In this document: one piece after another, positions 32,168 to 54,224 of the stretch | Layout: every line of letters starts with the position of its first letter | How positions within the stretch are numbered: the first letter of the stretch is position 1 | Source: a virus | Lineage: Duplodnaviria; Heunggongvirae; Uroviricota; Caudoviricetes | Length of the DNA stretch: 64,000 bases | Strand: one strand, 5' to 3' | IMG/VR virus record: IMGVR_UViG_2703718833_000007 | Span: 6,191 to 70,190 of that record | Position numbers and translations under genes: made by a program | Notes under the pieces: model-generated | Database searches by the model: none | Told to the model about the DNA's origin: nothing | The model's input: the letters and a program-made list of their open reading frames with translations, nothing else

Positions 32168-34513
32168 ATGGCTACCAGTTTAGGTACAATTTATTACGAA
32201 GTTGATGCAAAAACTGGTCAACTTCTAGTCGCTCAGAGACAGGCTGATCAGGCTTTTGACAGTATAGAGCGCGGCGCAAAACGTGCCGACCGCCAGGTGA
32301 ACACGCTTAAGACTTCAATCAAAGCACTATCCAGGGTCATCCATCTGTTACTTGCTGCGGAGGCTGTGCGCCAGTTTATTGACATGGCGGAGCAAGCAAA
32401 AATGCTTCGTGTCAAAATTAAAATGCTCACAGGTGACGCAGAGGCTGCAGGACGTGTTTTTGACGGCCTGAAAAAAATATCAAAGGAAACCGGGCAAAGC
32501 CTTAAAGACACTGGCGAATTGTGGCAGGGCCTGGCTATTTCACTAAAGAACACTTCCGCTACGGAAGGCCAATTGCTCAACCTGGTTGGCACTATTCAGA
32601 AGATGGGTGCGTTAGGAGGCGCGTCAGCGGAACAGATGTCTAATTCTATGCGCCAGTTCCGCCAGTCTATAGACGGCGGCGTGCTGCGTGCTGAAGAGTT
32701 TAACAGCCTGTTAGAGAACACGCCGACCATCGTACAGACAATGGCCCGCCATATGGGGTTGTCAATGGGCCAGTTCCGCGCCGAAATGCTGGACGGCAAG
32801 ATCACGGCTGAAAGGATGGTTAACGCGATTCAGGCAGCTACACAGGAAACAAACGAGAAGTTTGCACAGTTGCCGCGCACGTCCGGCAAGGCTATCAATG
32901 AGCTTAAAGTTGAGGTGATGGGACTTGTCGAACAGTTAGACGATCTTTTCGGCATATCAGATGGCGTTGTGTCGGCAATAGACTTAATCACTGGTGGCGT
33001 TGAGGGATTAGGTAAAGGCGCAAAATTCGCCGCAACATGTTTCAATACACTAAAAACGGCTGGCAGTGAGTTCATAGACATGTTTGACGACGTGGCTGTT
33101 AAGGCTGGCGAGGTGGCGGAAGAAATCATTAGAATGGTAACGCCAATCAAGGCGCTAATGGATGGCTACAAATGGATGAAGGAGATTGTAGGAAAGCAAA
33201 CAGAAGAATATAACACCAATTATGAGAAGAAATACGGTAAAAGACTTGGTAAGGGAATGCAATTTTGGGATGATTGGCAGGCCGTACTTAACCAAACAAA
33301 AGAAAACAAAGGAACCGACACCGCTAACGACGGCAAGATCACCGGATTCGAGCCGCCAGTAGATAAGCCAGGAAAACCGAAAAAAGGCAAAAAAGACAAG
33401 AAATCTGAAGCTGATCGGCTTGGTGATGAAGGTGTAAGTGTCTCCGACCAGTACAACAAAGACGCCGCCGCTATGCGTAAAGCACTGGAGAACGGCAAGG
33501 CCATTGACGCTGCGTTTGCTCAGGGCAAAATAACCCTCCTTGAGTACAAGGCAGCGCAAAAGGGGATAGGCAAGGAACTGAAGGACGAATTGGCACAAAT
33601 CCCGGTAGAAGAATTGCAGGACAAATGGGCGCACATAGTAAGCCCGATGGATCAGCTTAAGGGCGAAATTGACCCAATCAAACAGGCGCAGAATGAATGG
33701 GCAGTAAGAAAGCAAATGTTATTAGACCTGGGCGCTACAGAGGCGCAACAGAGACAGGCGCAGTTAGAATATGAACAACAGATCCGCGATCTGAAGTGGG
33801 AGCAGTGGCAGGCGCAAAGCGACACAAACAGCCTGATCGGTGCTTGTGTTAGCGGCCTCAAAGGTGGCATGGGTAATGCTCTTACCGGCCTGCTAAACGG
33901 CACTCAATCATTAAGCGAGGTTTTCGCCAACCTGGGAAGCAGCATACTTAACACCGTTGGCAACAAACTCTCAGAAATAGCCGCTAACTGGATAGCAGAT
34001 CAGTTAATGATGGAAACGCAAAGCAAGGCTACCCAGGCAAGCACTGCGGCTGGCGCTGTGGCTGCCCAGGGTGAGATCGCGGCAGCGGCGGCCCCGGCAG
34101 CGGCGGCTACGGCTGCATCAACTGGCGGTAGTTGGGCTATGGCTGGTGCTGCGGCGCTTTCTGCGATCATGTCGCTGGCAACGTCAATTTTTGGCGGCGG
34201 GCGTTATAATGGTGGTTCTGTGAATGGTGGTAGTCTGTATCGCGTAGGGGAACACGGAATACCTGAGCTATTCCAGACGAGCAACGGGCGTCAGTATATG
34301 ATCCCTGGGGAAAATGGCAGGGTTATTCCTGGCCGCGATCTTTTCAGTGGTGGCGGCATTAATATGCCTGTTAACATCACTGTTCAGACCACAAACGGGT
34401 TTAGCGACGAGGACAGTCGCAGACTTGAGCAGACAATGGAACGTGTAGCGATGAAAATGATGGCAAGGGAATCGCAACGACCGGGCGGAATGTTGCAACC
34501 TCGCCGCAAATAA
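32168..34513 (+). CDS. Tail tape-measure protein
   Basis: Track ORF 781 aa; helical N-terminal two-thirds, Gly/Ala-rich C-terminal region; position. Confidence 0.9.
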   Translation: MATSLGTIYYEVDAKTGQLLVAQRQADQAFDSIERGAKRADRQVNTLKTSIKALSRVIHLLLAAEAVRQFIDMAEQAKMLRVKIKMLTGDAEAAGRVFDGLKKISKETGQSLKDTGELWQGLAISLKNTSATEGQLLNLVGTIQKMGALGGASAEQMSNSMRQFRQSIDGGVLRAEEFNSLLENTPTIVQTMARHMGLSMGQFRAEMLDGKITAERMVNAIQAATQETNEKFAQLPRTSGKAINELKVEVMGLVEQLDDLFGISDGVVSAIDLITGGVEGLGKGAKFAATCFNTLKTAGSEFIDMFDDVAVKAGEVAEEIIRMVTPIKALMDGYKWMKEIVGKQTEEYNTNYEKKYGKRLGKGMQFWDDWQAVLNQTKENKGTDTANDGKITGFEPPVDKPGKPKKGKKDKKSEADRLGDEGVSVSDQYNKDAAAMRKALENGKAIDAAFAQGKITLLEYKAAQKGIGKELKDELAQIPVEELQDKWAHIVSPMDQLKGEIDPIKQAQNEWAVRKQMLLDLGATEAQQRQAQLEYEQQIRDLKWEQWQAQSDTNSLIGACVSGLKGGMGNALTGLLNGTQSLSEVFANLGSSILNTVGNKLSEIAANWIADQLMMETQSKATQASTAAGAVAAQGEIAAAAAPAAAATAASTGGSWAMAGAAALSAIMSLATSIFGGGRYNGGSVNGGSLYRVGEHGIPELFQTSNGRQYMIPGENGRVIPGRDLFSGGGINMPVNITVQTTNGFSDEDSRRLEQTMERVAMKMMARESQRPGGMLQPRRK

Positions 34514-37715: not shown

Positions 37716-38420
37716 ATGCGCAGCATACCTACAGAAATGATTATTGATTCCGTGGATTCCGGAGTCGGCGCGGTAATTGACTTGTTTGAATTGGACCTCA
37801 CGCCCCTGGGTGGCGAGGTTATCCGCTTCCATTCCGGCGCGAATGGCTATTACGGCCCGGTTATCTGGAAGGGAGTGGCTTACAACAGCTACCCAATCGA
37901 GGTAACTGGCTTCGAAATGAAAAACGAAGGCGTTTACTCACGCCCACAAATGGTAGTAGCTAACATTGGCGGGCTAATCACTGGGATGAATAACGATTTT
38001 AACGACCTTCGAGGAATGAAGGTTACGCGCCGCCAGGTGGAAGTAAAATACCTTGACGCTATCAACTTCCCCAACGGCAACCCAGATGCAGATCCATCTA
38101 TTGAGGCTGTATCTTTTTACGTCGTTGAGGCGATGAGCGAAGAAACAGCCGACCAGGTGCAATATGAACTATCAACGCCAATTGATGCTGATAAAGCTGT
38201 TATCCCTGGGCGCACAATTCTCGCTGACGTTTGCCAATGGCAGTATCGCGGAGACGGTTGCGGATATAGTGGCGGCCCTGTAGCTACTGATAAAGACGAA
38301 TCGACCAGCGATCCAAAGATGGACAAATGCAGCCACCGCCTAAGCGGTTGCCGTTTGCGTTTCCCGCGCCCGAATCCGTTACCAATTTCATGTTTCCCTG
38401 GATCGAGCAAGGTGGGTTGA
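37716..38420 (+). CDS. Minor tail protein L (lambda gpL-like)
   Basis: Track ORF 234 aa; C-terminal Cys cluster; position. Confidence 0.8.
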   Translation: MRSIPTEMIIDSVDSGVGAVIDLFELDLTPLGGEVIRFHSGANGYYGPVIWKGVAYNSYPIEVTGFEMKNEGVYSRPQMVVANIGGLITGMNNDFNDLRGMKVTRRQVEVKYLDAINFPNGNPDADPSIEAVSFYVVEAMSEETADQVQYELSTPIDADKAVIPGRTILADVCQWQYRGDGCGYSGGPVATDKDESTSDPKMDKCSHRLSGCRLRFPRPNPLPISCFPGSSKVG

Positions 38421-38422
38421 TT

Positions 38423-39154
38423 ATGACGCTTGAAGATAAAATGATTCGCTATGCAGCAGCCCACCCAGAAGAGGAGGTGTGCGGGCTGGTGATAGATAAC
38501 GATTATTTTTACCCATGCTTAAACGTATCTGAAGCGCCGCACAACAGCTTTAAAATCTCGCCTGACGATTATATCAAAGCTGACGAATTAGGCGTTATAA
38601 CAGCCGTTTTCCACTCACATACTAATGATTCATTGGTATTGTCAGCACGGGATCGACAACAGCAGGTTATTTCCGGCCTGCCGTGGTTTTTGTGTTCCGG
38701 TGGCAGGGTGAGAAAATTCCGCCCGGTGGCGCACCTGTTAGGCCGTAAATTTGAGCACGGGAAAACGGATTGTTACTCGCTTTTCCGTGACGCCTATCAC
38801 CTTTGCGGCGTGGATCTGCCGGACTTTGAGCGCCACGATGGGTGGTGGCTGCGTGGGGAAAACCTGTACATAAAAAACCTGCCATTGAACGGTTTTTACA
38901 TGGTTGACGCGCAAAGCATTCAGCCCGGTGACGTGATTATCCGCCAGCCGTTTAAAGGCGCTGACCCATGTCACGCGATGATTTACCTGGGCGACAACAC
39001 TGTTTTGCATCATGACAATGCCGGACTGTTAAGCCGCCGCGAGCAAATGCGGCCAGCTTATGTTAGGCAGACTAATTCAATATGGAGATCTGACAAATGC
39101 TCAAATTTAGATTTACGGGCAATCTTCGAAGATATTACGGCAAGGTGTGTTTAA
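38423..39154 (+). CDS. Tail assembly protein K (JAB/MPN + NlpC/P60 domains)
   Basis: Track ORF 38327-39154 trimmed to MTLEDK; JAMM motif HSHTNDSLVLSARD and NlpC/P60-like Cys (DCYSLF). Confidence 0.8.
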   Translation: MTLEDKMIRYAAAHPEEEVCGLVIDNDYFYPCLNVSEAPHNSFKISPDDYIKADELGVITAVFHSHTNDSLVLSARDRQQQVISGLPWFLCSGGRVRKFRPVAHLLGRKFEHGKTDCYSLFRDAYHLCGVDLPDFERHDGWWLRGENLYIKNLPLNGFYMVDAQSIQPGDVIIRQPFKGADPCHAMIYLGDNTVLHHDNAGLLSRREQMRPAYVRQTNSIWRSDKCSNLDLRAIFEDITARCV

Positions 39155-39627
39155 ACGTTGACACGCCAGCGCAGGGACTTGGCTTGCTGGTTGCGCAGAA
39201 TCATGAGTTCAAAAAGGCGTTTTTAAGTACCCCATTGCGCTTGCGGATTGCCGGAAAAGATTATGACGAAAAGACCGCGCCAGCAGCGGTTAATAGTAAA
39301 TACCCTGACGGGACTACCGTCATTGTTGCGCCAGTGGTGGAAGGCGGTATTGCAGGAATTGGCGTTGTAGGCTGGATTTTGATCGGTGTTTCGGTTGTTA
39401 GCGTTGCGTTCTCGATCTTTATGTCTCGCAACATGAAGATAAAAACATCAGCAGAAAGTGCACAAGATAACACCATATCTAACAACACATACACCAGCGT
39501 TGAAAACAAAGTGGGCCAGGGTAGACCAGTGCCGATCCTGTTGGGTGAAATGAAAATAGGTTCAAACGTCGGATCGTTAGGCATAGACACAAGTAACAAC
39601 AAAGACGCCCTAGACGTTGTAAGTTAA
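39097..39627 (+). CDS. Tail assembly protein I (lambda gpI-like)
   Basis: Track ORF 176 aa; C-terminal hydrophobic segment; overlaps K end as in lambda. Confidence 0.75.
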   Translation: MLKFRFTGNLRRYYGKVCLNVDTPAQGLGLLVAQNHEFKKAFLSTPLRLRIAGKDYDEKTAPAAVNSKYPDGTTVIVAPVVEGGIAGIGVVGWILIGVSVVSVAFSIFMSRNMKIKTSAESAQDNTISNNTYTSVENKVGQGRPVPILLGEMKIGSNVGSLGIDTSNNKDALDVVS

Positions 39628-39640
39628 CAGGAGAAAAGCC

Positions 39641-42600
39641 ATGAGTAGCGGCGGCGGCAAAGCCAAAACACCAACATTATTAAACGATAACCTGTATCAT
39701 AAACAGTTTTATCGTGTTTTAGACATTCTCAGCGAGGGGCCGATATACGGTCCGGTAAACCAGAATGCGCCATTAAACAACGTAATGCTTAATGACACGC
39801 CTATCACTGACGCAAACGGAAACACATCAATCCCGGGGATTAGTATAGCCTGGCGCAACGGCACGGCTGACCAGTCGCCGATTAATGGTTTTAATGCTAT
39901 CGAATCAACCGTTATTGTTAACGCAAAGGTAACTCACGATACACCAATAATCAGGACTGTTTCAGATCCAAACGTTAACCGCGTAAGGCTGAATCTTGGC
40001 GTTGATTCTCTGGTTCAGTCAGATGATAAGGGCAATCAATATAATACATCCGTTATGTTGATGGTTGATGTTAAACCGTCATCATCTTCTACGTGGTCGC
40101 AAATTAAAATCATTACCATCGGACCAGGTAAACAGAGTGGTGAGTATCTTGAAGCTCATATCATAGATGCACCCAATGAAAAACCGTTTGATATTCGCGT
40201 GCGCCGCATAACAGCAGATAGCAACAGCGATCTATTGCAGAATGATACGCGATGGAGTAGCTACAGCGAAATCATAGACGATAATCTGTCTTACCCTCAC
40301 ACCGCTGTAGCTGGCGCCGTAATTGACCATGATCAGTATACTGATACGCCTACCCGTAACTATCACCTTCGCGGGCTGATTGTTGATGTGCCGGACAACT
40401 ATAACCCTGAAACGCGCACGTATTCCGGTTTATGGCTTGGTGGATTTAAAAAAGCGTACACCAATAACCCTGCGTGGCTTTTCCGGTATCTGGTTAAAAA
40501 TGAACGTTTCGGGCTTGCCCGTCACGCTGGTTACATTGACGTTGATGACGGCGCATTGTATACGCTTTCTCAATACTGTGACCAGTTGGTTAGCGACGGT
40601 TACGGCGGCTTTGAACCTCGCATGACGCTTAATGCTTACATCACGGAGCAAATGAGCGCACGCGACTTGCTGGATAATATTGCTGGCATGTTCCGTGGTA
40701 TCGCGTTATGGGATGGGCAACGCCTTACCGTGATGATTGATGCGCCACAGGATCCAATTGCCACCATCACAAACGCAAACGTCGTTGATGGTGTGTTTAC
40801 TCGCTCAAGTCTTCCGCTTGCAGAGTGTTACAACGCCGTGATCGTATCATGGACTGACCCGGAAAACGGCTGGGAGCAATCAAAAGAATACGTGGCAGAT
40901 GATGAATTGATCGCCCGCGATGGTTATAACGAAACCACGTTGGAGGCGTTCGGTTGCACGTCACGCGGTCAGGCGTACCGCGCTGGCAAATGGCTGATAG
41001 AAACAGCAAAACGCGAACCGTCAAAATTCACGTTTAAAATGGCCCGTGACGCAATTCACTTCACCCCCGGGGATATTATCGAGATACTCGACAATAACCG
41101 CGCTGGCGCACGTTTAGGCGGTCGTATCGTGTCAAACACTGGCAGGGTTATCACTGTCGATAAGGTTGATTCTGAATACATCGCCCCAGGTGACACCATT
41201 AGCCTGCTTGATAGTGATGGCAAGTTTAAAAAACACCAGATCACTGGGGTTAACGGAAACAAAATCACCCTTGCATCCGCCCCGTCATGGATTCGCAACG
41301 GGACTGTTTTCGCTGTATCAACCAACGCGGCAAAACCCGTATTGTGTCGAATCATCAGCGTAGCAGAAACAGAAAATAACAGCGTGTACACCATCGAGGC
41401 TGCGCAGCATGATCCGCACAAACAGGCCGTAGTTGATGAAGGCGCGATCTTCGAGGTAAACAACGACACCCTTAATCACTTCCGCGTGCCTAACATTGAA
41501 AACCTGAAGGTGTTAAATGTTGGTTCTGAGACAGTTCAATGCCGCGCGACATGGGAAACACAGACGACAACGCATCGCCTGACCTTTGAGATCCGCGTAT
41601 ATAACGCCGAAGGCCGCGTGGTGGAAACTTATGAAACCACGAATTACCGCTATGAATTTTATGGCCTCGACGCTGGCAGTTACACGCTTGGTATTCGCGG
41701 GCGTAATGACACTGGCATGAAGGGTGCGGAAAGTATTGTGGACCTGGTTATTGGTGTACCATTGGCCCCTGTCGGCGTTAATTGGGTTCCTGGTGTTTTC
41801 CAGGCAACAGTATACCCGATCAGCAAAACAACCATGACCACTGATACAGCATATGAGTTCTATTTCTCAGGTGAAAATCAGATCACAGACCCATCAAAAG
41901 TAACCACATTAGCGCAGTTCACCGGGCGTGGCTACCAATGGACTTTTGGCGGCATGAACACGGGCCATACCTATTACGTTTATGTCCGCACACGTAACGC
42001 TTTTGGTGTGTCAGATTTCGTTGAGGCATCAGGAAAACCAACTGAAAACTTCGATGAAATCAGCGACTACGTGACGAAGGATGTTATGGGGTCAGAACAG
42101 TTTAAGGACATGATTGGCGACATTAAAGATCTTGGCGACCGCACAGATGTTATTGAAAATGCTACAAATGAACTAAAAACAGCGACCGGCAACCTCAAAA
42201 CTGCAACTGATAATCTGACAAACATAACTGACGATTTAAGAACTGAAACCGACAACCTGACCAACATAACCGAAGATTTAAGAACTGACACTGACAACCT
42301 GATCACAGAAACAGGATCAATAAAAGCTGATACCGATACGCTAAAAAAAGAAACAGAAGATCTTTATAAAAAAGTTAAGGAAAACGCCGATGATATTGGT
42401 CAGCATGAGTCAAGAATTGACTCATTAGAAGTGTCCAGCGAAAAAGTTGGCAGCGAACTGGCGCAAGCAAAAGCAAGCCTGCAAAACGCGTCACTTGCTC
42501 TTATTAATAACTCACTTGCACAGACAAACACGCGCGTAACTCTTACCGCTCAGTACAATAAAGGCAGGGCAGAGACCAAAGCGCAAATTGACCGCATTGA

Positions 42601-44980
42601 CAACGTTATCGCTGAAGAGAAAAAAGCGACAGCGGAATCACTGGAAACCATCACGGCAGAAATGAACACGATGGATTCTAACCTTAAAGGTCAGATTTCT
42701 AACGTGCAGCGCGCAGTAGCTGACGAGGCCAGCGCCCGCGCTGAAGCTATTAACGGTGTAAATGCCTCAATAAGCAATCTTGATAAGAAAACTGACTCCA
42801 GCGTTAACCGCATTGATCAAGCGATCGCTGACGAGACGAGCGCACGGACTCAAGCCATCAGCGACGTAAATGCAAGTATCTCAACGCTAGACAAGAAAAC
42901 TGACGCCAGCGTTAAACGCTTGGATCAGGCAATTGCAGATGAAACCAGTGCAAGAACTGAAGCCATCAGCGGCGTGAATGCCTCAATTTCCACGCTTGAT
43001 GGCAAAGTTACAAGCAATATTAACCGCATTGATAAAGCGATTGCAGACGAAACGAAAGCACGCACCGACGCGATCAGTAGCGTGAATGCAAGTATTAGCA
43101 CACTTGAAAACAATACAGAATCAGAAGTAAGCAGACTGGATCAAGCGGTTGCAGATGAAACCAGTGCCCGCACCCAGGCCATTAGCGACGTTAACGCCTC
43201 AATAAGCAATCTTGAAAGCAAAACTGACGCGAGCGTTTCCCGTCTTGATAAAGCAATATCAGATGAAACGCAGGCAAGAAGCGACGCAGTAACAGAGGTT
43301 AAAGCTAATTTAACGACGCTTGAAAATAGCACAAACTCCAGTGTTAAGCGCCTTGATCAAGCCATCGCCGACGAATCAAGCGCCAGGGCGCAGGCAATAT
43401 CAGGCATCAGCGCTGAACTTGGTATAGTTGAAAAAGATGTTGACAAAAACAGCGACGAAATAAATCAGACTAAAGCAAGTCTGCAAAACGCCTCAATCGC
43501 ACTTATCAACAACTCTATCGCTCAGACCAACACGCGGGTTACTCTTACTGCCCAATATAAGAAAGGTCGCAGAGAAACCAACGCGCAAATTGACCGTATT
43601 GACAATGTTGTAGCAGAGGAGAAAAAAGCCACTGCAGAAGCCATTAGCTCTGTAAACGCATCGATAACCGAACTTGATAAGAAGACAGAAGCAAGCGTTA
43701 GCCGCCTTGATAGAGCGATTGCAGACGAAACGAGCGCCCGCAGCGAGGCCATCAGCGGTGTGAATGCCTCAATTTCCACGCTTGATGGCAAGGTGACAAG
43801 CAACGTAACCAGGATGGATAAGGCGATTGCAGACGAAACGAAGGCCCGTACTGACGCAATAAGTAGTCTTAACTCATCGCTTACCAGTACGATTAATTCT
43901 AAGGTATCAGAGGCGTCAACGGCACTTTCTACGCATGAAGCATCAAGCGCAGAAAAATTTAGCCAGATCTCTGCGTCTTTCGAATCTGTAAACTCAAGTA
44001 TTACAGAATGGTCGCAGGCAATGGCAACGGCTGACGAGGCATTATCAAGCAAAATTGATCAGTTGACAGTAACAGTTAACGGGAACAAAACGGCGATAGA
44101 GACGACATCGAAAGCGTTAACCGACTTCAAAGGTAATGTTGATGCGTCGTACTCTATCAAGCTGGCGACCGACAACAACGGAATGAAATACGCAACAGGT
44201 ATGTCGCTTGGCCTCACTGGTGACGGCACTAACTTTCAGTCGCAGTGTATTTTCCTTGTTGACCGTTTCGTGTTAATGACCGCAGCAAACGGCACATATA
44301 CAACGCCTTTCTATGTCACCAATGGCGCAATGTATGTAAGAGAAGCGTTTATTAAGGACGGCACTATCAACTCCGCCAAAATAGCTGATCTAATACAGTC
44401 AGTTAATTACAGCTGGGAAAACGGTACAGGATGGGCGATAAATAAAGACGGTAACGCAGTATTTAACCAGGTAACAGTAAGGGGTACGGTATACGCCACA
44501 AACGGTAAATTTACTGGTGAGATTCAGGCCACAAGCGGGACGTTTAAAGGGACTGTACAGGCTAACAAATTTGTCGGTGATATTGTGGCTATTCACACTT
44601 TCCCTGATTCCAGCACTGTCTATAACTCAAGCCAGCGTGTAGCGCGTTTCTGTTATCGCTATGTGGACTCAACATCCGAAGAGACTTATAAAAACGTTAT
44701 GTTCCAGGCAAGGTTATCAGGGGCTACCAACACATCACAGATCAATGCCTGGATAGCTGGTTCTCAGGTATTGGTTGGTAAGAAATACGGTAACGAAAAC
44801 TCAAACGGCATGTTCTGTTTCGGTATGGATGGTGTAACAAATCAGATTGTCGATGTTGTTATCGAGATCTACACTCCGTGGTCAACAGGTAACAACACTG
44901 GGATTACGTTAAGTTGTCCGACCATGTTTATAGGTCGCAGTAACGGCACATGGTCGAAATGGGAAGAATCACACGACTAA
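39641..44980 (+). CDS. Host-specificity / central tail fibre protein J (lambda gpJ-like) with long internal coiled-coil repeat region
   Basis: Track ORF 1779 aa; position after I; repeated ~38-aa units (ADETSARTQAISDVNASISTLDKKTD...). Confidence 0.9.
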   Translation: MSSGGGKAKTPTLLNDNLYHKQFYRVLDILSEGPIYGPVNQNAPLNNVMLNDTPITDANGNTSIPGISIAWRNGTADQSPINGFNAIESTVIVNAKVTHDTPIIRTVSDPNVNRVRLNLGVDSLVQSDDKGNQYNTSVMLMVDVKPSSSSTWSQIKIITIGPGKQSGEYLEAHIIDAPNEKPFDIRVRRITADSNSDLLQNDTRWSSYSEIIDDNLSYPHTAVAGAVIDHDQYTDTPTRNYHLRGLIVDVPDNYNPETRTYSGLWLGGFKKAYTNNPAWLFRYLVKNERFGLARHAGYIDVDDGALYTLSQYCDQLVSDGYGGFEPRMTLNAYITEQMSARDLLDNIAGMFRGIALWDGQRLTVMIDAPQDPIATITNANVVDGVFTRSSLPLAECYNAVIVSWTDPENGWEQSKEYVADDELIARDGYNETTLEAFGCTSRGQAYRAGKWLIETAKREPSKFTFKMARDAIHFTPGDIIEILDNNRAGARLGGRIVSNTGRVITVDKVDSEYIAPGDTISLLDSDGKFKKHQITGVNGNKITLASAPSWIRNGTVFAVSTNAAKPVLCRIISVAETENNSVYTIEAAQHDPHKQAVVDEGAIFEVNNDTLNHFRVPNIENLKVLNVGSETVQCRATWETQTTTHRLTFEIRVYNAEGRVVETYETTNYRYEFYGLDAGSYTLGIRGRNDTGMKGAESIVDLVIGVPLAPVGVNWVPGVFQATVYPISKTTMTTDTAYEFYFSGENQITDPSKVTTLAQFTGRGYQWTFGGMNTGHTYYVYVRTRNAFGVSDFVEASGKPTENFDEISDYVTKDVMGSEQFKDMIGDIKDLGDRTDVIENATNELKTATGNLKTATDNLTNITDDLRTETDNLTNITEDLRTDTDNLITETGSIKADTDTLKKETEDLYKKVKENADDIGQHESRIDSLEVSSEKVGSELAQAKASLQNASLALINNSLAQTNTRVTLTAQYNKGRAETKAQIDRIDNVIAEEKKATAESLETITAEMNTMDSNLKGQISNVQRAVADEASARAEAINGVNASISNLDKKTDSSVNRIDQAIADETSARTQAISDVNASISTLDKKTDASVKRLDQAIADETSARTEAISGVNASISTLDGKVTSNINRIDKAIADETKARTDAISSVNASISTLENNTESEVSRLDQAVADETSARTQAISDVNASISNLESKTDASVSRLDKAISDETQARSDAVTEVKANLTTLENSTNSSVKRLDQAIADESSARAQAISGISAELGIVEKDVDKNSDEINQTKASLQNASIALINNSIAQTNTRVTLTAQYKKGRRETNAQIDRIDNVVAEEKKATAEAISSVNASITELDKKTEASVSRLDRAIADETSARSEAISGVNASISTLDGKVTSNVTRMDKAIADETKARTDAISSLNSSLTSTINSKVSEASTALSTHEASSAEKFSQISASFESVNSSITEWSQAMATADEALSSKIDQLTVTVNGNKTAIETTSKALTDFKGNVDASYSIKLATDNNGMKYATGMSLGLTGDGTNFQSQCIFLVDRFVLMTAANGTYTTPFYVTNGAMYVREAFIKDGTINSAKIADLIQSVNYSWENGTGWAINKDGNAVFNQVTVRGTVYATNGKFTGEIQATSGTFKGTVQANKFVGDIVAIHTFPDSSTVYNSSQRVARFCYRYVDSTSEETYKNVMFQARLSGATNTSQINAWIAGSQVLVGKKYGNENSNGMFCFGMDGVTNQIVDVVIEIYTPWSTGNNTGITLSCPTMFIGRSNGTWSKWEESHD
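42100..43900 (+). repeat. In-frame tandem and segmentally duplicated coding repeats within gene J
   Basis: Repeated DQAIADETSAR...NASIS units and two copies of KASLQNAS(L/I)ALINNS(L/I)AQTNTRVTLTAQY block. Confidence 0.7.
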
Positions 44981-44985
44981 TACTA

Positions 44986-45008
44986 ACCCCGCTACGGCGG
45001 GGTTTATA
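44986..45008 (+). terminator. Rho-independent terminator after J
   Basis: ccccgc-tacg-gcgggg hairpin followed by tttata. Confidence 0.6.
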
Positions 45009-45088
45009 CATATAGTAAACACATATTCGTCTGCGTAATGATAAGGCGTTAAAATAGTATGGTTAATTAACATAATGGAGTCATTGCG

Positions 45089-47026
45089 ATGATTTACACA
45101 ACTGGAACAATTGCCATCAATGGCAACACCGTTACAGGTACGGGAACAGATTTTTCCGCGCCGCTTTCTCTCATCCGTGTAGGTTGCACGCTCATTGCCA
45201 TCGGCAATCCGGTGCAGATCTTTACCATTACGGAAATCAAAAACGGTACTGAACTGTCAGTTACGCCAGCGGCTAACCCTGCAATCCCTGCGGGAACAAA
45301 ATTTAGTATTCTGCTTTCTGATTCGATCTCAGTTGATGGGCTTGCCCAGGACGTAGCTGAAACGTTGCGCTACTATCAGAGTAAAGAAACAGAAGTAGCG
45401 GAAGCGCTTGAATGGAGTCAGAACCATATAGCAGACAAGATCGGGCTTGGTGCAGATCACCGCGACTGGCCTGATTGCAACGATCCTACTGGTTATATAG
45501 GTTTTTGCCGTGCTGTAGAAGCTGAATCACGTAACTTTCCGTCAATCGCATCTGGCGAAATTTACTTGGTTGGTTGGCTTGCGCGTGGTGACAATGCCGT
45601 TATTAACGGCTGTTTCGTTGGTACAATTAGCCTTTCACTGTACACATACAGATATAACCCAACAGATGGTACGAAAGTATGGACACGACACGCAAGAAAA
45701 GATGAGGTAAGCAGATTGGCCCAGGGTTCTGACGAATCAGCTTTATGGGCCGCAGGAGGGAAGCAAAAATTTGTTCTGTTGGATGGAGGTGATGGGAATA
45801 CTCTATCTTGGGGTGTTTGGGATGATGCTGTTAGTCAATGGAGTCCATTAGCAATAGCTCAGGGCGGTACTGGTGCGCTTGATGCTTTAACTGCTAGGAA
45901 CAATCTAGGGGTGGGTGTAGGTGACAGTCCTCAATTCAGGGATGTGAATCTATCACGCTCAACAGATGAATCATCTGGCTTGGTATCTGGTGGTATACAA
46001 AGTTCCATACTTCTGGGATCTGATGGTACTAAGCGTGCAGAAGGTTTATTTTATGTAGAACACCAACAAGATAAACCAACACAAGTAACGCTTTCTGTAA
46101 ATGGAGCTAACGAAGGTTATAAATATTTATGCTTTAATACAATGGGGCAGATTTTAGTAGATACAGCCATTTTCAGATCAAACGGCACTAATCCACTTAT
46201 TATTAAAAGCAACACACCAACAATCTTATTCGTTGAAGAGGATCGCCCAAACGGATCACCTTATTACAGCTTAAATTTTGATGATGGTAACTGGCGCATT
46301 CAGAAAAGTGGCAATGGGTATAATGGTGAATATGTAATAAACTACGACTATCAAAAAAATGAAATAGAGGTTCCAAAACTCAAAGCATCAAGAATGAGTA
46401 TTCTTGGGACAGGCAGTAGTTTAGAAATAAATAGCGCTGGAACAGCAGATGAAACGACGTCTATTCAATCATGGGGTAATAGATCTGATCGCTTGTCTGT
46501 TTTTGAGGTAAGTTTAGATACAGGCTATTTATTTTACGCGCAGAAAAATGCTGATAAAAGCATGGTTTTATCAGTCAACGGGAAGATAGAATGCGTGTCA
46601 TTATCCCAATCATCTGACAGGGATCTGAAGGATAACATCAAGATTATCAGTGACGCCACTGAAGCCATCCGTAAAATGAACGGGTACACCTACACGCTTA
46701 AAGAAAACGGCCTGCCTTACGCTGGCGTTATCGCTCAGGAGGTCATGGAGGCAATACCGGAAGCAATAGGGTCGTTCACAAAGTACGGTGAAGAACTGGC
46801 AGGCCCGACACAAAGCGGTCATGAACTGCGAGAAGAAACCCGTTTCCTTAGCGTTGACTACGCAGCAGTCACTGGTTTACTTGTCCAGGTGGCACGCGAA
46901 ACAGATAACCGCGTCACCGAACTTGAAGAGGAAAACGCCAGCCTGCGAGATAACATTGCCGCAATGGATGAGCGTATCGCAAAACTTGAAGCGCTTGTCA
47001 GCAAGTTGACTGGAAGCGAAAAATAA
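45089..47026 (+). CDS. Tail fibre/spike protein with C-terminal S74-type intramolecular chaperone domain
   Basis: Track ORF 645 aa; C-terminal SDRDLKDNI...NGYTYTLKENGLPYAGVIAQEV and terminal coiled coil. Confidence 0.75.
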   Translation: MIYTTGTIAINGNTVTGTGTDFSAPLSLIRVGCTLIAIGNPVQIFTITEIKNGTELSVTPAANPAIPAGTKFSILLSDSISVDGLAQDVAETLRYYQSKETEVAEALEWSQNHIADKIGLGADHRDWPDCNDPTGYIGFCRAVEAESRNFPSIASGEIYLVGWLARGDNAVINGCFVGTISLSLYTYRYNPTDGTKVWTRHARKDEVSRLAQGSDESALWAAGGKQKFVLLDGGDGNTLSWGVWDDAVSQWSPLAIAQGGTGALDALTARNNLGVGVGDSPQFRDVNLSRSTDESSGLVSGGIQSSILLGSDGTKRAEGLFYVEHQQDKPTQVTLSVNGANEGYKYLCFNTMGQILVDTAIFRSNGTNPLIIKSNTPTILFVEEDRPNGSPYYSLNFDDGNWRIQKSGNGYNGEYVINYDYQKNEIEVPKLKASRMSILGTGSSLEINSAGTADETTSIQSWGNRSDRLSVFEVSLDTGYLFYAQKNADKSMVLSVNGKIECVSLSQSSDRDLKDNIKIISDATEAIRKMNGYTYTLKENGLPYAGVIAQEVMEAIPEAIGSFTKYGEELAGPTQSGHELREETRFLSVDYAAVTGLLVQVARETDNRVTELEEENASLRDNIAAMDERIAKLEALVSKLTGSEK

Positions 47027-47056
47027 GAGGTGATGTGCGAAGAACATCGCCGCGCG

Positions 47057-47085
47057 AAACGAGGCTCACGCCTCGTTTCTTTTTG
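47057..47085 (+). terminator. Rho-independent terminator at right end of prophage 1
   Basis: acgaggc-tcac-gcctcgt hairpin followed by ttctttttg. Confidence 0.7.
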
Positions 47086-47459
47086 TGTACCAAATAGTGA
47101 CCAAATTTTAAAAAACAAAACTAAATCATACATAACACACTGTTTTTAAAGAGATAATATTTAACATTAACCATTCCAGACAGGACTGGTGAGTAAGTCC
47201 AGGGTATTGAAGTTGTGCGTAATCATTGAGATCCCGTTATTTTTATCAATTTTTGTTGCTATCCGATCGCAAAAAAGCCACGTCATATGATCAGATAATT
47301 CTGATAATGATAGACGCTATTTAACACTTCACACGGTTTGTATACGGATAAGCATTTTGCTTTTTGTATTCAATTTAGACAGAATTTTATTAATCATTTC
47401 AGGGTAATGGGGTGATGAGATGTTGCGTAACAGGGCCAGAAGGCTAGACTACAAAATAA

Positions 47460-48464
<1,005 letters not shown>

Positions 48465-48941
48465 CAAAAGCAATTTTTCCGGCTGTCTGTATACAAAAAC
48501 GCCGCAAAGTTTGAGCGAAGTCAATAAACTCTCTACCCATTCAGGGCAATATCTCTCTTGCAGGTGAATGCAACGTCAAGCGATGGGCGTTGCGCTCCAT
48601 ATTGTCTTACTTCCTTTTTTGAATTACTGCATAGCACAATTGATTCGTACGACGCCGACTTTGATGAGTCGGCTTTTTTTTGCCTGTTATTTATCAGCGT
48701 CTACCCTTTAAGAGTCCACCCAATGACCAGAGGGAAATATGACGACACTTATTTATTTGCAAATTCCTGTCCCTGAACCGATTCCTGGCGATCCTGTTCC
48801 AGTGCCCGATCCGATCCCTCGCCCGCAACCCATGCCTGACCCACCACCCGATGAAGAACCGATTAAATTGTCGCATCGTGAGCGTAGATCTGCGAGGATA
48901 CGCGCCTGCTAACTTTGCGTCGATGACCACGAGAATAGATT

Positions 48942-50315
48942 GTGACCGCTTTTTCTACCCTGAATGTTTTGCCTCCCGCCCAACTCACGAACCTTAATGA
49001 GTTGGGTTATTTAACCATGACGCCGGTGCAGGCCGCCGCGCTTCCGGCGATCCTTGCCGGAAAAGATGTTCGCGTGCAGGCGAAAACCGGCAGCGGCAAA
49101 ACGGCGGCTTTTGGCCTCGGCTTGTTACAGCAAATTGATGCGTCGCTATTTCAAACCCAGGCTTTAGTGCTGTGTCCTACGCGTGAACTGGCGGATCAGG
49201 TGGCAGGTGAATTGCGTCGGCTGGCGCGTTTTCTGCCAAATACCAAAATTTTGACGTTGTGCGGTGGTCAACCGTTCGGTATGCAGCGTGATTCGTTGCA
49301 ACATGCGCCGCATATTATCGTGGCAACGCCGGGGCGTTTGCTGGATCACCTGCAAAAAGGCACGGTATCACTGGATGCGTTGAATACGCTGGTGATGGAT
49401 GAGGCCGACCGCATGCTGGATATGGGATTTAGCGATGCCATTGATGATGTCATCCGTTTTGCGCCTGCATCTCGACAGACGCTTCTGTTTTCGGCAACCT
49501 GGCCGGAAGCCATCGCTGCAATCAGCGGACGAGTGCAACGCGATCCTTTGGCGATTGAAATTGACTCAACAGATGCTTTGCCACCCATTGAACAACAATT
49601 TTATGAGACATCCAGCAAAGGCAAAATTCCTCTGTTGCAACGGTTATTAAGCTTGCATCAGCCATCCTCTTGCGTGGTGTTTTGCAATACCAAAAAAGAT
49701 TGCCAGGCTGTCTGCGACGCGCTGAATGAAGTAGGGCAAAGTGCATTGTCATTACACGGCGATTTGGAGCAACGCGATCGCGATCAGACCCTGGTACGTT
49801 TTGCTAACGGTAGCGCCCGTGTACTGGTCGCGACTGATGTTGCTGCGCGTGGTCTGGATATTAAATCGCTTGAGCTGGTGGTGAACTTTGAGCTGGCGTG
49901 GGACCCTGAAGTTCATGTACATCGCATCGGTCGTACAGCTCGTGCAGGAAATAGCGGTCTGGCGATCAGTTTCTGTGCTCCGGAAGAAGCACAGCGGGCC
50001 AATATCATTTCTGACATGTTGCAGATAAAACTTAACTGGCAAACGCCGCCAGCTAATAGTTCCATTGCGACGCTGGAAGCAGAAATGGCAACGTTGTGTA
50101 TCGATGGCGGGAAAAAAGCCAAAATGCGCCCGGGTGATGTATTAGGTGCACTGACAGGAGATATCGGGCTTGATGGCGCAGATATTGGCAAAATCGCCGT
50201 GCATCCGGCGCATGTCTATGTCGCGGTCCGTCAGGCTGTTGCTCATAAAGCATGGAAACAGTTACAGGGCGGGAAGATTAAAGGAAAAACGTGCCGGGTG
50301 CGGTTATTAAAATAA
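48942..50315 (+). CDS. dbpA: ATP-dependent RNA helicase DbpA (DEAD-box), host gene
   Basis: Track ORF 457 aa; Walker A AKTGSGKT, DEAD box (VMDEAD), SAT, HRIGRTAR motifs. Confidence 0.95.
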   Translation: MTAFSTLNVLPPAQLTNLNELGYLTMTPVQAAALPAILAGKDVRVQAKTGSGKTAAFGLGLLQQIDASLFQTQALVLCPTRELADQVAGELRRLARFLPNTKILTLCGGQPFGMQRDSLQHAPHIIVATPGRLLDHLQKGTVSLDALNTLVMDEADRMLDMGFSDAIDDVIRFAPASRQTLLFSATWPEAIAAISGRVQRDPLAIEIDSTDALPPIEQQFYETSSKGKIPLLQRLLSLHQPSSCVVFCNTKKDCQAVCDALNEVGQSALSLHGDLEQRDRDQTLVRFANGSARVLVATDVAARGLDIKSLELVVNFELAWDPEVHVHRIGRTARAGNSGLAISFCAPEEAQRANIISDMLQIKLNWQTPPANSSIATLEAEMATLCIDGGKKAKMRPGDVLGALTGDIGLDGADIGKIAVHPAHVYVAVRQAVAHKAWKQLQGGKIKGKTCRVRLLK

Positions 50316-50335
50316 TGAAATGTTGAATTGCCGGG

Positions 50336-50432
50336 TGCAAGAGTAAACATCTTATTCGGGATTGCCGGATGCGACGCTGGCCGCGTCTTATCCGGCCTCC
50401 ATAAGAGTAGCCCGATACGCTTGCGCATCGGG
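50336..50432. repeat. REP/BIME-type repetitive extragenic palindromes between dbpA and ttcA
   Basis: tgccggatgcgacgctggccgcgtcttatccggcc and gcccgatacgcttgcgcatcgggc match the E. coli REP pattern. Confidence 0.7.
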
Positions 50433-50443
50433 CGCTATCCTGG

Positions 50444-51379
50444 TTATTTCACTTCAACCACATTCAGCCGTAACTCATCCAACTGATTTTCATCTTCTTC
50501 TGGCTGCCAGCACGCCGGTTGTAGTGGGATCTCTTCGCGATCAAACGCCAGATCACCCCCGTTAACCACTTCAGAACCGTGGGTGATGCCTTTGAAATCG
50601 AACAGGTTGGTATCGCACAGATGCGACGGCACCACATTCTGCATCGCGCTGAACATCGTCTCGATACGCCCTGGATAACGTTTATCCCAGTCACGCAACA
50701 TGTCAGCAATCACCTGACGTTGCAGGTTAGGCTGTGAACCGCACAGGTTGCACGGAATAATCGGGAACGCTTTTGCATCGGCAAATCGCTGAATATCTTT
50801 CTCGCGGCAGTAGGCCAGCGGACGAATAACGATATGTTTGCCATCATCGCTCATCAGTTTCGGAGGCATACCTTTCATCTTACCGCCGTAGAACATATTT
50901 AAGAACAACGTTTGCAGGATATCGTCACGATGGTGACCCAACGCGATCTTCGTCGCCCCCAGTTCCGTTGCGGTACGATAAAGGATACCGCGACGAAGGC
51001 GAGAACACAGTGAGCAAGTGGTTTTGCCCTCTGGAATCTTCTCTTTCACGATACCGTAAGTATTCTCTTCAACAATCTTGTACTCAACGCCCAGCTTTTC
51101 AAGATACTCGGGCAGAACGTGTTCCGGGAAGCCCGGTTGCTTTTGATCGAGGTTAACAGCCACCAGCGAAAAATTGATTGGCGCGCTTTGCTGCAAATTG
51201 CGCAGAATCTCCAGCATGGTATAGCTGTCTTTACCCCCGGAGAGGCAAACCATGATGCGATCGCCTTCTTCAATCATATTGAAGTCAGCAATGGCTTCGC
51301 CCACGTTACGACGCAGACGTTTTTGTAATTTGTTCAGATTGTATTGTTCTTTCTTTGTAATTTGTTGATTTTCTTGCAT
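50444..51379 (-). CDS. ttcA: tRNA 2-thiocytidine biosynthesis protein TtcA (5' end adjacent to Rac-type integrase)
   Basis: Track ORF 311 aa; PP-loop SGGKDS and Cys motifs. Confidence 0.9.
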
Positions 51380-51430
51380 TATTTCAGTTCTCTGGTACTA
51401 AATGGGGCAAATTGGGGGCAAACTTTGCAA

Positions 51431-52666
51431 CTACGATAACCGCGCATTCAACATGGCTATCTGTTCGTCGTTCATGTCATCAATCCACATACCGTAAATT
51501 TCATACACCATCTGCGCAGTTTCATGCCCCATTTGGCTGGCTATAAATGCCGGGTTCGCTCCTGCCGTCAACAGCCAGCAGGCAAAAGTATGCCGCGTAT
51601 GGTACGGATTACGGCGGCGAATACCAGCACGTTTTACTGCTGCATTCCACCTTGCCCCCAAACTGCTTACCGAGTAATAAGGTTTTTGTTTTCCGTTACA
51701 CACCCTGGGCATGAAAACAAAATGCAGTTTTTGCTTTTCGGTTCTGCCGTACTCCCGATGATAAAAGGTGATTTCGCTTTTGCGATGATGCCCGGTCAGT
51801 TTGTATTGCTCCTTCAGTGCTTCAAGAGCAGGCTGCAGTAGTGTTACTGTTCGGATCCCGGCATTTGTTTTTGGGGGACCGAACATATCAAGTATCGTCA
51901 GGTTTCTTCTGACATTCACTATTCCCTTTTCGAGATCCACATCCTCCCACGCCAGAGCTGCCAGTTCCCCGTGACGAAGTCCTGAGTAAACGGCAAATTT
52001 CCACAAGTTCTGGCTCTGTCCTTTTTCACTTTCCATTAATGCATTGAATTCTGTTTTAGATAACGGATCAGGCTTTATTCTGTTTCGCTGTAATTTTTTT
52101 ACTCCTTCAAATGGTTTGGTTGATATAAATCCCGACTGATACGCAAAACGCAACAGCGAACAGAGCAGGGCGATATAGTTATCAACTGTGCGCACGGTTC
52201 TTCCTTTTTTGTTGGATCTTGGATTATCCAGGTAAAGCGTTTCTCCATGCAGCAGTTCATTCCGGTAGTTTAAGATATCGCTATAACGAATATGTGATAT
52301 CGGGGTACTTTCACAAATTATTATTCTGAGTGTTTTTAATTGTGATTTTGTTTTCTTCATTGTGTATGTTGTTAACTCTGTCTCTTTAATTTTTGTCCAG
52401 ATATCACAAAGCTCTCCGAACGTTTTTATGACTCTCGTTGTCACCATTTTTGCCCCAGTGCTGGACTGGGGAAAACGTCTTAAATACTCAAATTCACCGG
52501 AGTTTATTTCATGAACTATCAGCGCTCTTAAATTTCCGGCCTTTTTAATATTACTGTTTGTAATCTCCCAGCCTTTTAATGTTTCCCGACATCGTTTTCC
52601 TCGAAACATGAACCAGATGCGAATGTATCTACCTCTAATCTCGACACCTGTTGGTAATTTAGACAT
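51431..52666 (-). CDS. intR: Rac prophage integrase (tyrosine recombinase)
   Basis: Track ORF 411 aa; C-terminal catalytic R...HxxR...Y region (NPYHTRHTFA). Confidence 0.9.
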   Translation of the reverse strand: MSKLPTGVEIRGRYIRIWFMFRGKRCRETLKGWEITNSNIKKAGNLRALIVHEINSGEFEYLRRFPQSSTGAKMVTTRVIKTFGELCDIWTKIKETELTTYTMKKTKSQLKTLRIIICESTPISHIRYSDILNYRNELLHGETLYLDNPRSNKKGRTVRTVDNYIALLCSLLRFAYQSGFISTKPFEGVKKLQRNRIKPDPLSKTEFNALMESEKGQSQNLWKFAVYSGLRHGELAALAWEDVDLEKGIVNVRRNLTILDMFGPPKTNAGIRTVTLLQPALEALKEQYKLTGHHRKSEITFYHREYGRTEKQKLHFVFMPRVCNGKQKPYYSVSSLGARWNAAVKRAGIRRRNPYHTRHTFACWLLTAGANPAFIASQMGHETAQMVYEIYGMWIDDMNDEQIAMLNARLS

Positions 52667-52667
52667 A

Positions 52668-52883
52668 TCATGAGTCTTTGATAAACTGATTTATCTTTGG
52701 ATAGTTGTACCAGATAATCCCTCGTTTGCTGTCTGGCTTACCTAAAGGAGATACTCGTTTGAAGTGGAAGCCCTCCACCCAACAGTTCTGGCGGTATGCT
52801 TCAATTTGTCTGGCCCCCAGACCAGTGCGAAGCATCAGGCCGTATTCAACCATCCACTCTTCATTAAAGATTACTTGTGCCAT
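52668..52883 (-). CDS. xisR: Rac prophage excisionase
   Basis: Track ORF 52668-52907 trimmed to [15 protein letters not shown]. Confidence 0.8.
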
Positions 52884-52961
52884 CGCATCACCTCTGGCAG
52901 GCGCCAATGTTAGACTGAAATTGACGCCCGATGTTGATTATTAATAATAAGCTATGAAGTT

Positions 52962-53171
52962 TTAATTTGAATACAATGCAATTCTCGAGGACTGAAGTTT
53001 CTCGCAATTAAAATTTATCAGTTTTACTTTCTGCTCTCTGGAAACGCCTGCTTCTTTTTTACCTGAGAGCATTTTTTCGCATTCTGATTTCGTTAGTTTA
53101 GATTTTGAATATCTTGTCCAGTTAGTAGGAGTGCCACCTTCCTTTTCAATAGTGGCGGTAATTTTATACAT
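52962..53171 (-). CDS. rcbA: Rac prophage protein RcbA (YdaC)
   Basis: Track ORF 52962-53243 trimmed to MYKITATIEKEGG. Confidence 0.75.
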   Translation of the reverse strand: MYKITATIEKEGGTPTNWTRYSKSKLTKSECEKMLSGKKEAGVSREQKVKLINFNCEKLQSSRIALYSN

Positions 53172-53358
53172 GAACACCTCCATTATTATTTCCAGTGGTT
53201 CGTTTATTCCATCTTTCGAGTGCTTCTTTTTCACCTCCACCATAACCGGTTCGGGATTCGCATCCGTTACACTTCGCTCGGTAATATCCTGAAATGGCTT
53301 TCACCGTTACTGATGGACAACCACAAAATGGACATGGTTTAACATTGTCATATCTCAT
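53164..53358 (-). CDS. ralR: Restriction-alleviation protein / type I TA toxin RalR (Lar)
   Basis: Track ORF 53164-53397 trimmed to MRYDNVKPCPFCGC; matches remembered Lar. Confidence 0.8.
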   Translation of the reverse strand: MRYDNVKPCPFCGCPSVTVKAISGYYRAKCNGCESRTGYGGGEKEALERWNKRTTGNNNGGVHV

Positions 53359-53414
53359 AATTTTTCTCATAAAAAATATTTCAAGTTGGCGGTGCATTAC
53401 ACCGCCAGGCTGAA

Positions 53415-54224
53415 TTATTCCTCTGAATTATCGATTACACTGTATTCCCCGGTTAATACAGAGGAATCTGCAGGATCGATTGTCAGTGGTTCCTTTTCAT
53501 CCATTGATACTGCACGCTGGATCTCAATTGATACGGGCAGATATTTGAACAGGCGACGAATAGCCGTTTTCTTTGCCATTTCTTCCCAGTGAGTTACCCA
53601 CGGCCCGTTATTACCAGCTTTACTCAGGCTGCGCACCAGCTCAATCTGTTTGCGCGTCATAACTTCAAACTGAGTACCTCCGTCTTTCAGTCTTGCGACA
53701 GCATAGACGTGGGTAACCGGGGCATCTTCGTTTTCTCCCGGGCGGTGTATTAACTTTTCATCAAGGCCAAATTCGAAGCTAAACTCGTCACCTTCACGGA
53801 CAACACGGGCTGACAGGCTGGCGATTTGACCAGAACGGCGAGCCAGATCAATCATGCCGCGATAGCCAATGATTAGCTGAACGTTCTTTTTACCGCTCTT
53901 TTCGTTTTTATTACCAAAAGGCAGTAAATATGCATGACCGAGGGCGCTACCTGGCTCAAGTCCGAGCTGTGAACACTGTACGATCGCACTGACAAAACTC
54001 ATAGTGTCACAGTTTCCTAACGCCGGAACTTTACGAATTTCTGTGGTGGCGATACGGATCATACGTTCAGCCGTCATATGGCGTGGAAGAGCTGCTGCCA
54101 GTTGCTCTTTCATTGATGGCTGGTTAATAAAACTAATCACGTCGCTATTTTTAACTGCTGCTGGTGCACGGTTTCCCTGAGTTTTTTGCAGATCGGTTTT
54201 TGCGATTGGTGGTTGCTTAGTCAT
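53415..54224 (-). CDS. recT: RecT single-strand annealing protein
   Basis: Track ORF 53415-54281 trimmed to [14 protein letters not shown] (269 aa). Confidence 0.95.

Follow-up and report, generated by a model that had tools for sequence, protein, structure and literature searches.

The 64,000-nucleotide window analysed here (the whole stretch from positions 6,191 to 70,190 of the IMG/VR record IMGVR_UViG_2703718833_000007) contains a gene J at 39641..44980 on the + strand, whose 1779-amino-acid product is, judging from its sequence, a central tail fibre or tip attachment protein of the lambda J type. Where lambda has a short helical shaft, this protein has about 650 proline-free residues that include eleven tandem units of 36 codons (108 nt), arranged in arrays of eight and three, and related alleles of the gene differ by whole units. 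The region is very probably a greatly expanded alpha-helical shaft of a trimeric central tail fibre, varying by whole repeat units. It would be placed between the last immunoglobulin-like (Ig)/fibronectin type III (FNIII) domain and the beta-prism with the receptor-binding end, and each of its two repeat classes appears to be sized to a structural period: heptads, partly organized as 14-residue repeats, would form a canonical left-handed coiled coil, and 36-residue units (7+11+7+11; ten turns at 3.6 residues per turn) would form a nearly straight bundle. As direct repeats in the DNA, the units would allow recombination or slippage to add or drop whole units with the reading frame and the helical register kept, which would account for the range of 4 to 15 units among the J alleles of the phage population. 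The shaft would set the distance of the receptor-binding end from the tail tip, and would couple receptor binding to tail opening.

Gene J and its two classes of repeat

The original prediction, which was made from the letters of the window, called the gene J, and the open reading frame (ORF), the Pfam domains of its product (FNIII-A_GpJ, Phage-tail_3, Ig_J, Ig_J_second and Phage_Tail_Tip) and its alignment with lambda gpJ all agree with that name. Residues 1-856 of lambda gpJ (PDB 8iyk) align with amino acids (aa) 1-849 at an expectation value (E) of 3e-185, and the alignment restarts at lambda residue 837, equivalent to aa 1477 (C-terminal part, E 5e-9). The hub domains and the two Ig/FNIII domains (aa 1-811; 39641..42073, + strand) are unrepeated, with Pfam matches at aa 88-214, 335-493, 609-707 and 709-811; the N-terminal hub/FNIII-A domains match PF24801 (E 2e-36) and PF13550 (E 3e-28), and the later domains of the protein match PF24421, PF24489 and PF09327. 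Towards the other end, the beta-prism part of the fibre (Phage_Tail_Tip/DUF1983, aa 1485-1623; 44093..44509, + strand) is indicated by a Pfam match at E 2.6e-40, by strands modelled with AlphaFold2 (AF2), and by Foldseek, in which the predicted beta-strand part resembles the lambda central tail fibre (8xcj/8xci, E 1e-5). A variable terminus, aa 1624-1779 plus the stop codon (44510..44980, + strand), makes up the receptor-binding end. The protein has the layout of a lambda-type J: two Ig/FNIII domains are followed by the helical shaft and the beta-prism, with the receptor-binding end at the C-terminus.

In-frame tandem repetition in J exceeds chance. Internal repeats had been predicted, and they are displayed by comparison of the protein with itself, where the strongest diagonals fall at 36, 72, 108, 334 and 262 aa and weaker ones at 7, 14 and 21 aa. 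The repeats lie where they had been placed, but the unit is 36 codons and not the roughly 38 proposed; the predicted large duplication is also there, but at about 0.44 kb (offsets of 1002 and 786 nt) rather than 0.6 kb; and the 14-codon repeats, with their nine heptads, had not been separated as a second class. Tandem Repeats Finder (TRF) detects a period of 108 nt at 42741-42996 and one of 42 nt at 42199-42302, and a repeat finder returns a family of eight copies with 108-nt spacing at 42719-43197 and 43613-43875. TRF alone caught only parts of the arrays, and the register was set by hand and with a hidden Markov model (HMM) of the unit.

From N- to C-terminus, all on the + strand, the repeat region begins with a heptad segment (aa 843-910; 42167..42370) of nine heptads, partly of 14-codon (42-nt) repeats found by TRF and with a hydrophobic period of 3.50. 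It is followed by a 39-residue segment before array A (aa 944-982; 42470..42586), KASLQNASLALINNSLAQTNTRVTLTAQYNKGRAETKAQ, which is duplicated 1002 nt downstream, and then by array A itself (aa 983-1270; 42587..43450), eight 36-codon units of which the first is degenerate, with a period of 3.60. A 46-residue spacer (aa 1271-1316; 43451..43588) containing the second copy of the 39-residue segment separates array A from array B (aa 1317-1424; 43589..43912), three 36-codon units whose register was likewise fixed with the unit HMM. The stalk ends in a degenerate helical tail (aa 1425-1484; 43913..44092), helical to aa 1472 in the AF2 model and with a period of about 3.5. The consensus of the unit is VxRLDxAIADETSARTxAISxVNASISTLDxKTxSS.

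The two arrays have a common origin. A 168-nt repeat pair, 42470-42637 and 43472-43639, lies 1002 nt apart and is 79% identical (334 aa apart in the protein), and most of the 46-residue spacer duplicates the 39-residue segment at this offset. The whole duplication of about 0.44 kb, 43472-43912, has its copies at 42470-42694 (1002-nt offset) and 42911-43126 (786-nt offset). Unit B1 is the counterpart of A3 (92% identical in amino acids, 81% in nucleotides), B2 that of A4, and B0 that of A0; array B with the spacer therefore goes back to an old duplication of the first part of array A and lacks two of its units. Across the units the proportion of differing synonymous sites is 0.70 and that of nonsynonymous sites 0.33, so that the protein is conserved while synonymous sites are near saturation. 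The units of this allele share only 39-81% nucleotide identity and its longest exact repeat is 32 nt, which argues that they are old and that the allele is fairly stable. Recombination between the two copies of this direct repeat (42974..43005 and 43760..43791, + strand) would delete 786 nt in frame, in parallel with the deletion that separates the J genes of phages mEp021 and mEp515.

That the repeats encode a helical stalk of coiled-coil type, as had been predicted, is well supported. The 664 residues of aa 821-1484 contain no proline and are rich in Ala, Ser, Thr, Asp, Glu and Asn. The canonical heptad period of 3.5 holds only for aa 821-910, where the hydrophobic period is 3.50; both arrays have a period of 3.60 and, read as 7+11+7+11, are therefore non-heptad bundles. 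Positions 1, 4, 8, 11/12, 15, 19, 22, 26, 29 and 33 form the core in a set of 103 distinct units taken from 20 alleles; their spacing corresponds to 7+11+7+11, or ten helical turns per unit. All AF2 runs were of the monomer. With an alignment of 41 sequences, AF2 gave one unbroken helix from aa 1318 to 1472 followed by beta-strands, with a predicted local distance difference test score (pLDDT) of 92-98 over about the first 120 residues of the helix, dropping toward its end. From the single sequence of aa 801-1520, nearly all of aa 819-1503 is helix, with low-confidence breaks at aa 1299-1302, in the second copy of the spacer segment, and at aa 929-942, just before the first copy, which is itself modelled as helix.

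The position of the stalk in the protein agrees with this. The order in lambda gpJ is hub, FNIII-1, FNIII-2, a three-helix alpha-helical shaft (residues 809-861), beta-prism and receptor-binding domain (PMC11101478). Since the lambda alignment ends at aa 849 and resumes at about aa 1477, some 650 residues here occupy the position of lambda's shaft of about 53 residues. Residues 914-1186 of the F2-pyocin fibre align with aa 1329-1606 (E 2.4e-32), and this part of F2 has been solved as a three-stranded coiled coil (PMC13455828). T1 gp33 matches unaided, both with the stalk (E 7e-6 in a PDB search) and with the unit profile (E 8e-4), its residues 877-976 aligning with aa 1381-1479. By analogy with these relatives the shaft is presumably trimeric. 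A PDB search with the stalk alone found T1 gp33 and, weakly, F2 pyocin, and one with the unit profile found T1 gp33 only; a PHROGs search with the stalk gave nothing beyond a weak match to 'tail fiber protein' and tape-measure look-alikes. Against 1.84 billion representatives the unit profile matched just 44 clusters, mostly J-like and other fibrous proteins, and the 36-residue unit is therefore not a widespread named repeat family.

Length variation in whole units

J genes were taken from six phages and thirteen E. coli genomes which, together with the window, gave 20 alleles, and 33 further complete genes came from IMG/VR contigs, for a total of 53 complete alleles in which units were counted by HMM. 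Genome records and IMG/VR contigs were the source because a word-indexed protein search yielded mostly fragments of J. The 53 alleles have 4-15 units and 1350-1935 aa (5-15 units and 1393-1935 aa in the 20; 4-12 units and 1350-1813 aa in the 33), and the array layouts in IMG/VR include 5+3, 9+3, 8+4, 7+5, 3+4, 6 and 8. Five units are found in mEp515, mEp013 and FAH, eight in MS21-1, 2017C and M1/5, nine in GN04592, ten in mEp010 and LP-26, eleven in the window allele and MIN12, twelve in 2-331, N921, 127 and UMNK88, thirteen in mEp021, mEp044 and mEp554, and fifteen in 190 and PRO_A. The first unit starts at residue 941, 948, 955, 962, 969, 983 or 997, which indicates that the heptad segment changes by seven residues at a time; the heptad segments of relatives differ by 14, 14 and 49 aa.

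The original prediction that the region varies in length by recombination holds for the group, as is seen in near-identical alleles that differ by 108, 216 or 1002 nt. Apart from one or two single-nucleotide polymorphisms over 5 kb, the J genes of 2017C, GN04592 and LP-26, with eight, nine and ten units, differ in 108 or 216 nt at a single site, and two units of LP-26 are 100% identical at the DNA level. MIN12 and N921 differ by a single 108-nt indel. The mEp515 gene matches the mEp021 gene with zero mismatches, except that 1002 nt have been deleted at an exact direct repeat of 35 nt. The predicted instability applies to the group as a whole; the window allele, with its diverged units, is less unstable than had been implied.

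The suggestion that stalk length affects host range found no support. Among the six isolated mEp phages, whose receptors are taken from the description of the mEpimmI phage group (PMC11893012), no link was found between receptor choice and unit number: the phages that use OmpA carry 13 and 5 units, and those that use LamB 13, 13, 10 and 5. The receptor-binding end of the window allele (44510-44977) is of a type distinct from those of these six phages, to which it is at most 30% identical; it is 68% identical to that of strain 127. Its only close copy, at 95% identity, is in the IMG/VR locus L052, where the stalk is about 250 aa shorter. MIN12, N921 and 2-331 (loci L007, L008 and L013) are identical through the stalk, and MIN12 and 2-331 diverge sharply in the last ~900 nt, which suggests that recombination breaks where the stalk ends and so swaps the receptor-binding end. 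The alleles show that the receptor-binding end and the length of the stalk are exchanged independently.

Possible roles of the shaft

Several observations weigh against a greatly expanded helical shaft whose length matters. The single-sequence AF2 model of the stalk is of low confidence (pLDDT 62.6; predicted template modelling score 0.22) and was used only as weak support. The helical part of the F2-pyocin fibre matches weakly by itself (E 0.27), so that its homology rests on collinearity with the strong beta-prism match. Fully extended, a shaft of ~650 residues would be about 97 nm long, yet the tails of mEpimmI phages are about 130 nm, and the available part of the paper that describes them mentions no long tip fibre (PMC11893012), so that the two spacer segments are possible hinges or sites of folding back. 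Finally, mEp515, with 334 fewer residues, infects K-12 through the same receptor as mEp021: both are reported to plate on K-12 and to need OmpA (PMC11893012), and loss of 334 stalk residues is therefore tolerated on this host. The trimeric state of the shaft, its physical length and the effect of a change in that length are inferred.

What role might so long a shaft have? One possible, though doubtful, answer is a modular fold-switching spring: a metastable shaft, as in the central fibre of F7 pyocin, which would refold from a coiled coil into a beta-prism on receptor binding. Each 36-residue unit might then be ten helical turns before infection and one beta-hairpin of the prism after it, a correspondence that we consider as tentative as the spring itself. 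A unit would shorten about five-fold, from ~5.3 nm to ~1 nm, pulling the tail tip to the membrane and helping the tail to open, and the number of units would set the stroke length and the stored energy. The model is the F7 pyocin, described in a 2026 preprint (PMC12874032), in which a 163-residue coiled coil of the central fibre becomes a beta-prism on cell contact and the switch is needed for killing. A strand motif, SxSxxMxxLxS, is reported for it that runs in alternating directions from one strand to the next, along with pairs of Asp/Glu and Arg spaced four residues apart; similar switches are predicted there in many siphophage fibres, with the T1-like phage TLS in the predicted set (PMC12874032).

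Among 116 distinct J units, the forward motif stands at unit position 14 in 98% and the reverse motif at position 35 in 71%, values that column-permutation controls reach in 0 of 200 (forward) and 1 of 200 (reverse) cases, although the residue classes were taken from the text of the preprint and not from its structure-based alignment. E11 is accompanied by R/K15 in 84% of units, and in the set of 103 distinct units E11 is invariant and R15 is 85% conserved. The stalk as a whole has 36 motif matches (18 forward, 18 reverse) against 9.1 expected from composition, whereas the helical tape measure protein has 2 against 2.9 and a YadA-type adhesin 15 against 13.4; the matches within the repeats are, however, copies of one ancestral unit and not independent. 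The motif is also carried by the F2-pyocin fibre and by T1 gp33, with spacings of 15-17 and 12/21 residues, and it is the repeat region of T1 gp33 that the unit profile and the stalk match. As in F7, the coiled-coil segment of the J stalk directly precedes a beta-prism seed, and it has both the motif and the D/E-R pair. In lambda, shaft residues 841-861 become beta-strands on LamB binding (PMC11101478).

Other evidence speaks against a switch of this kind. Alanine at unit position 18, outside the motif, is strictly kept. AF2 with the 41-sequence alignment produced helix only and no beta alternative, although as a monomer run it cannot decide the matter. Since mEp515 works without 334 residues, any stroke length is not critical on K-12. 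The F7 authors themselves state that lambda and T5 lack the extensive switch (PMC12874032). If the spring were real, simple recombination between repeats would already have supplied, in the natural alleles of 4-15 units, a set of springs that differ in stroke and stored energy; mEp021 and mEp515 would be an isogenic natural pair, with 13 and 5 units; and the mEp021 group would be a tractable E. coli K-12 system for studying the storage and release of energy in non-contractile tails.

An equally doubtful alternative gives the shaft no conformational role, and takes it to be a rigid rod, a passive spacer, with selection matching its length to how deep the O-antigen or capsule layer of the host is. 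The wide range of unit number among prophages of natural E. coli strains, and the occurrence of a receptor-binding end of one type, 95% identical, on stalks that differ by ~250 aa (the window and L052), are in keeping with such a spacer. E. coli K-12 is rough and has no O-antigen. The tolerance of K-12 for the loss of 334 aa in mEp515 (PMC11893012) also fits a spacer. However, the non-core residues A7, A9, A14, A18 and A24 are kept small in 84-99% of units despite saturated synonymous sites, and such strictness at small non-core positions implies more constraint than a solvent-exposed spacer needs.

It is improbable that the two duplicated spacer segments form a docking platform for side fibres, binding the product of the fibre gene downstream of J (45089-47026). 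Lambda side fibres attach elsewhere, which counts against it, and mEp515 and several IMG/VR alleles have one array and one spacer segment. In its favour, alleles keep the duplicated spacer segment highly conserved, one of the low-confidence helix breaks in the single-sequence AF2 model falls within the second spacer copy (aa 1299-1302), and J is followed by a side-fibre gene with an S74 chaperone domain. A precedent is found in F2 pyocin, where three side-fibre trimers bind the shaft at a Gly kink, residues 953-956 (PMC13455828).

That read collapse or expansion has given the window the wrong repeat number or order is hardly credible, for although draft assemblies often truncate the J of relatives within the stalk, mostly inside a unit, the J ORF is unbroken over 5340 nt, units of 39-81% nucleotide identity with a longest exact repeat of 32 nt can be spanned by ordinary reads, and the complete genome of strain MIN12 shows the same 8+3 layout. 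The assembly trouble that had been foreseen does have indirect support elsewhere: many of the related database proteins are labelled 'partial' and have an end within the stalk, mostly within a unit, and of 39 viral contigs five end in J, four of them within the stalk. The window allele itself looks sound.

Prophage context and known fibres

By its sequence the window is E. coli chromosome carrying a prophage of the mEpimmI (mEp021) group (PMC11893012). The repeat region is 83-88% identical in nucleotides to the J genes of mEp021, mEp044, mEp554, mEp515, mEp013 and mEp010, and over 14 kb the window is 88-92% identical to prophages of MIN12, 2-331, UMNK88, 127, WCHEC025970, FAH, KKa019 and PAR, all of which the description of the group lists (PMC11893012). 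About 25 of 5426 complete E. coli genomes match the repeat region, none of them above ~87% over the whole of it. A host other than E. coli, first suggested by an identity of 85%, was ruled out by the stretch at 52700-60700, which is 99.9% identical to E. coli Rac prophage DNA (recE, recT, sieB, ydaT). Rac DNA covers at least this stretch, so that two prophages stand almost side by side. The right end of the prophage that carries J adjoins zntB and dbpA, as in relatives; ORFs of the size of zntB and dbpA follow the prophage within 47481-64000, their names coming from matching E. coli records.

The gene order is that of the lambda-J type: tape measure (32168-34513), L (37716-38420) and K (an NlpC/P60+JAB protein, 38327-39154), all identified by Pfam, then I (39097-39627), identified by correspondence with gene I of annotated relatives, and J. 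A putative HNH endonuclease gene, which the window and the other relatives lack, lies between I and J in mEp021 (L001 2983-3549) and mEp515 (L004 1983-2549). Only 108 nt (44981-45088) lie between J and the side-fibre gene, and a small reverse-strand lipoprotein gene (cor/lpp-type exclusion) is absent from this interval, as it is in strain 127; most relatives have one, and such genes are reported in 83% of mEpimmI genomes (PMC11893012). The side tail fibre gene (45089-47026, + strand) encodes 645 aa with a C-terminal S74 intramolecular chaperone domain. Among relatives the side fibre varies widely in type and in length (~600 to 1140 aa), and it is therefore mosaic as well. Within 39000-47500 a promoter scan found no excess of promoters, and there are 15 terminator-like sites against 8.9 +/- 3.2 expected, with one clear hairpin at 47056-47079, after the side-fibre gene.

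A run of antisense ORFs (79, 43, 40, 62, 63 and 176 aa; 42067..44052, - strand), extending from 42067-42306 to 43522-44052 in one shared frame, overlies the repeats. The original prediction had attributed these spurious ORFs to the repetition; they do exist, but the repeats are not their cause. When the codons are shuffled and the repeats destroyed, the antisense open stretches reach 188 +/- 60 codons against 125 observed, so that the ORFs stem from codon composition. The control leads us to reject them as genes.

The closest known systems are the mEp021-group phages. They share with the window the order L, K, I, J and side fibre, the neighbourhood by zntB and dbpA, the 14-aa and 36-aa repeats and the two-array layout; the window differs from them in having no small lipoprotein gene after J, and from the six isolated phages in the type of its receptor-binding end. 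The lambda gpJ shaft (residues 809-861; 8iyk, 8xck, 8xci) has the same place between FNIII-2 and the beta-prism (PMC11101478), but with ~53 residues against ~650 repeat-built ones. The fibres of F-type pyocins (F2, PDB 25vf, PMC13455828; F7, PMC12874032) likewise have a long three-stranded coiled-coil shaft before the beta-prism, and share the SxSxxMxxLxS motif with the J stalk. Their shaft has about 163 switching residues and, in the aligned part, no regular 36-residue unit, and fold switching has been demonstrated for F7 pyocin only. To our knowledge the lambda shaft has no tandem repeats. In T1 gp33 (PDB 9l9p), residues 891-1001 contain about four related repeats, each of ~33 residues (IADETQAR..I..L.A), fewer and shorter than the units of J, and the repeat part is unresolved in the cryo-EM map (PMC11945409). 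YadA-type trimeric autotransporter adhesins also have fibrous trimeric stalks built of repeats, in another domain context and by analogy only; they are not enriched in the fold-switch motif. The unit profile does match 12 stretches of the YadA-anchor adhesin P0038, which suggests that phage fibres and bacterial adhesins either share coiled-coil repeat sequence or have converged on it.

How much of this is new? The description of the mEpimmI group already reports 'repeats of different length (positions 950-1,475)' and size differences in J, but in the available part of its text it defines no unit, periodicity, copy numbers or recombination events (PMC11893012), and change in stalk length is in itself mostly ordinary. 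New here are the exact 36-codon unit, its 3.6-residue periodicity and the register-preserving steps of 7 and 36 residues. Also new are the range of unit numbers among alleles, the dated recombination events, the observation that receptor type is independent of how many units there are, and the correspondence with the F7 motif. In practical terms, J genes of the mEp021 group break easily in draft assemblies, and the antisense ORFs over their repeats should not be called as genes. For the biology of the group, the allele series shows a tail fibre that changes its length in steps that preserve the coiled-coil register.

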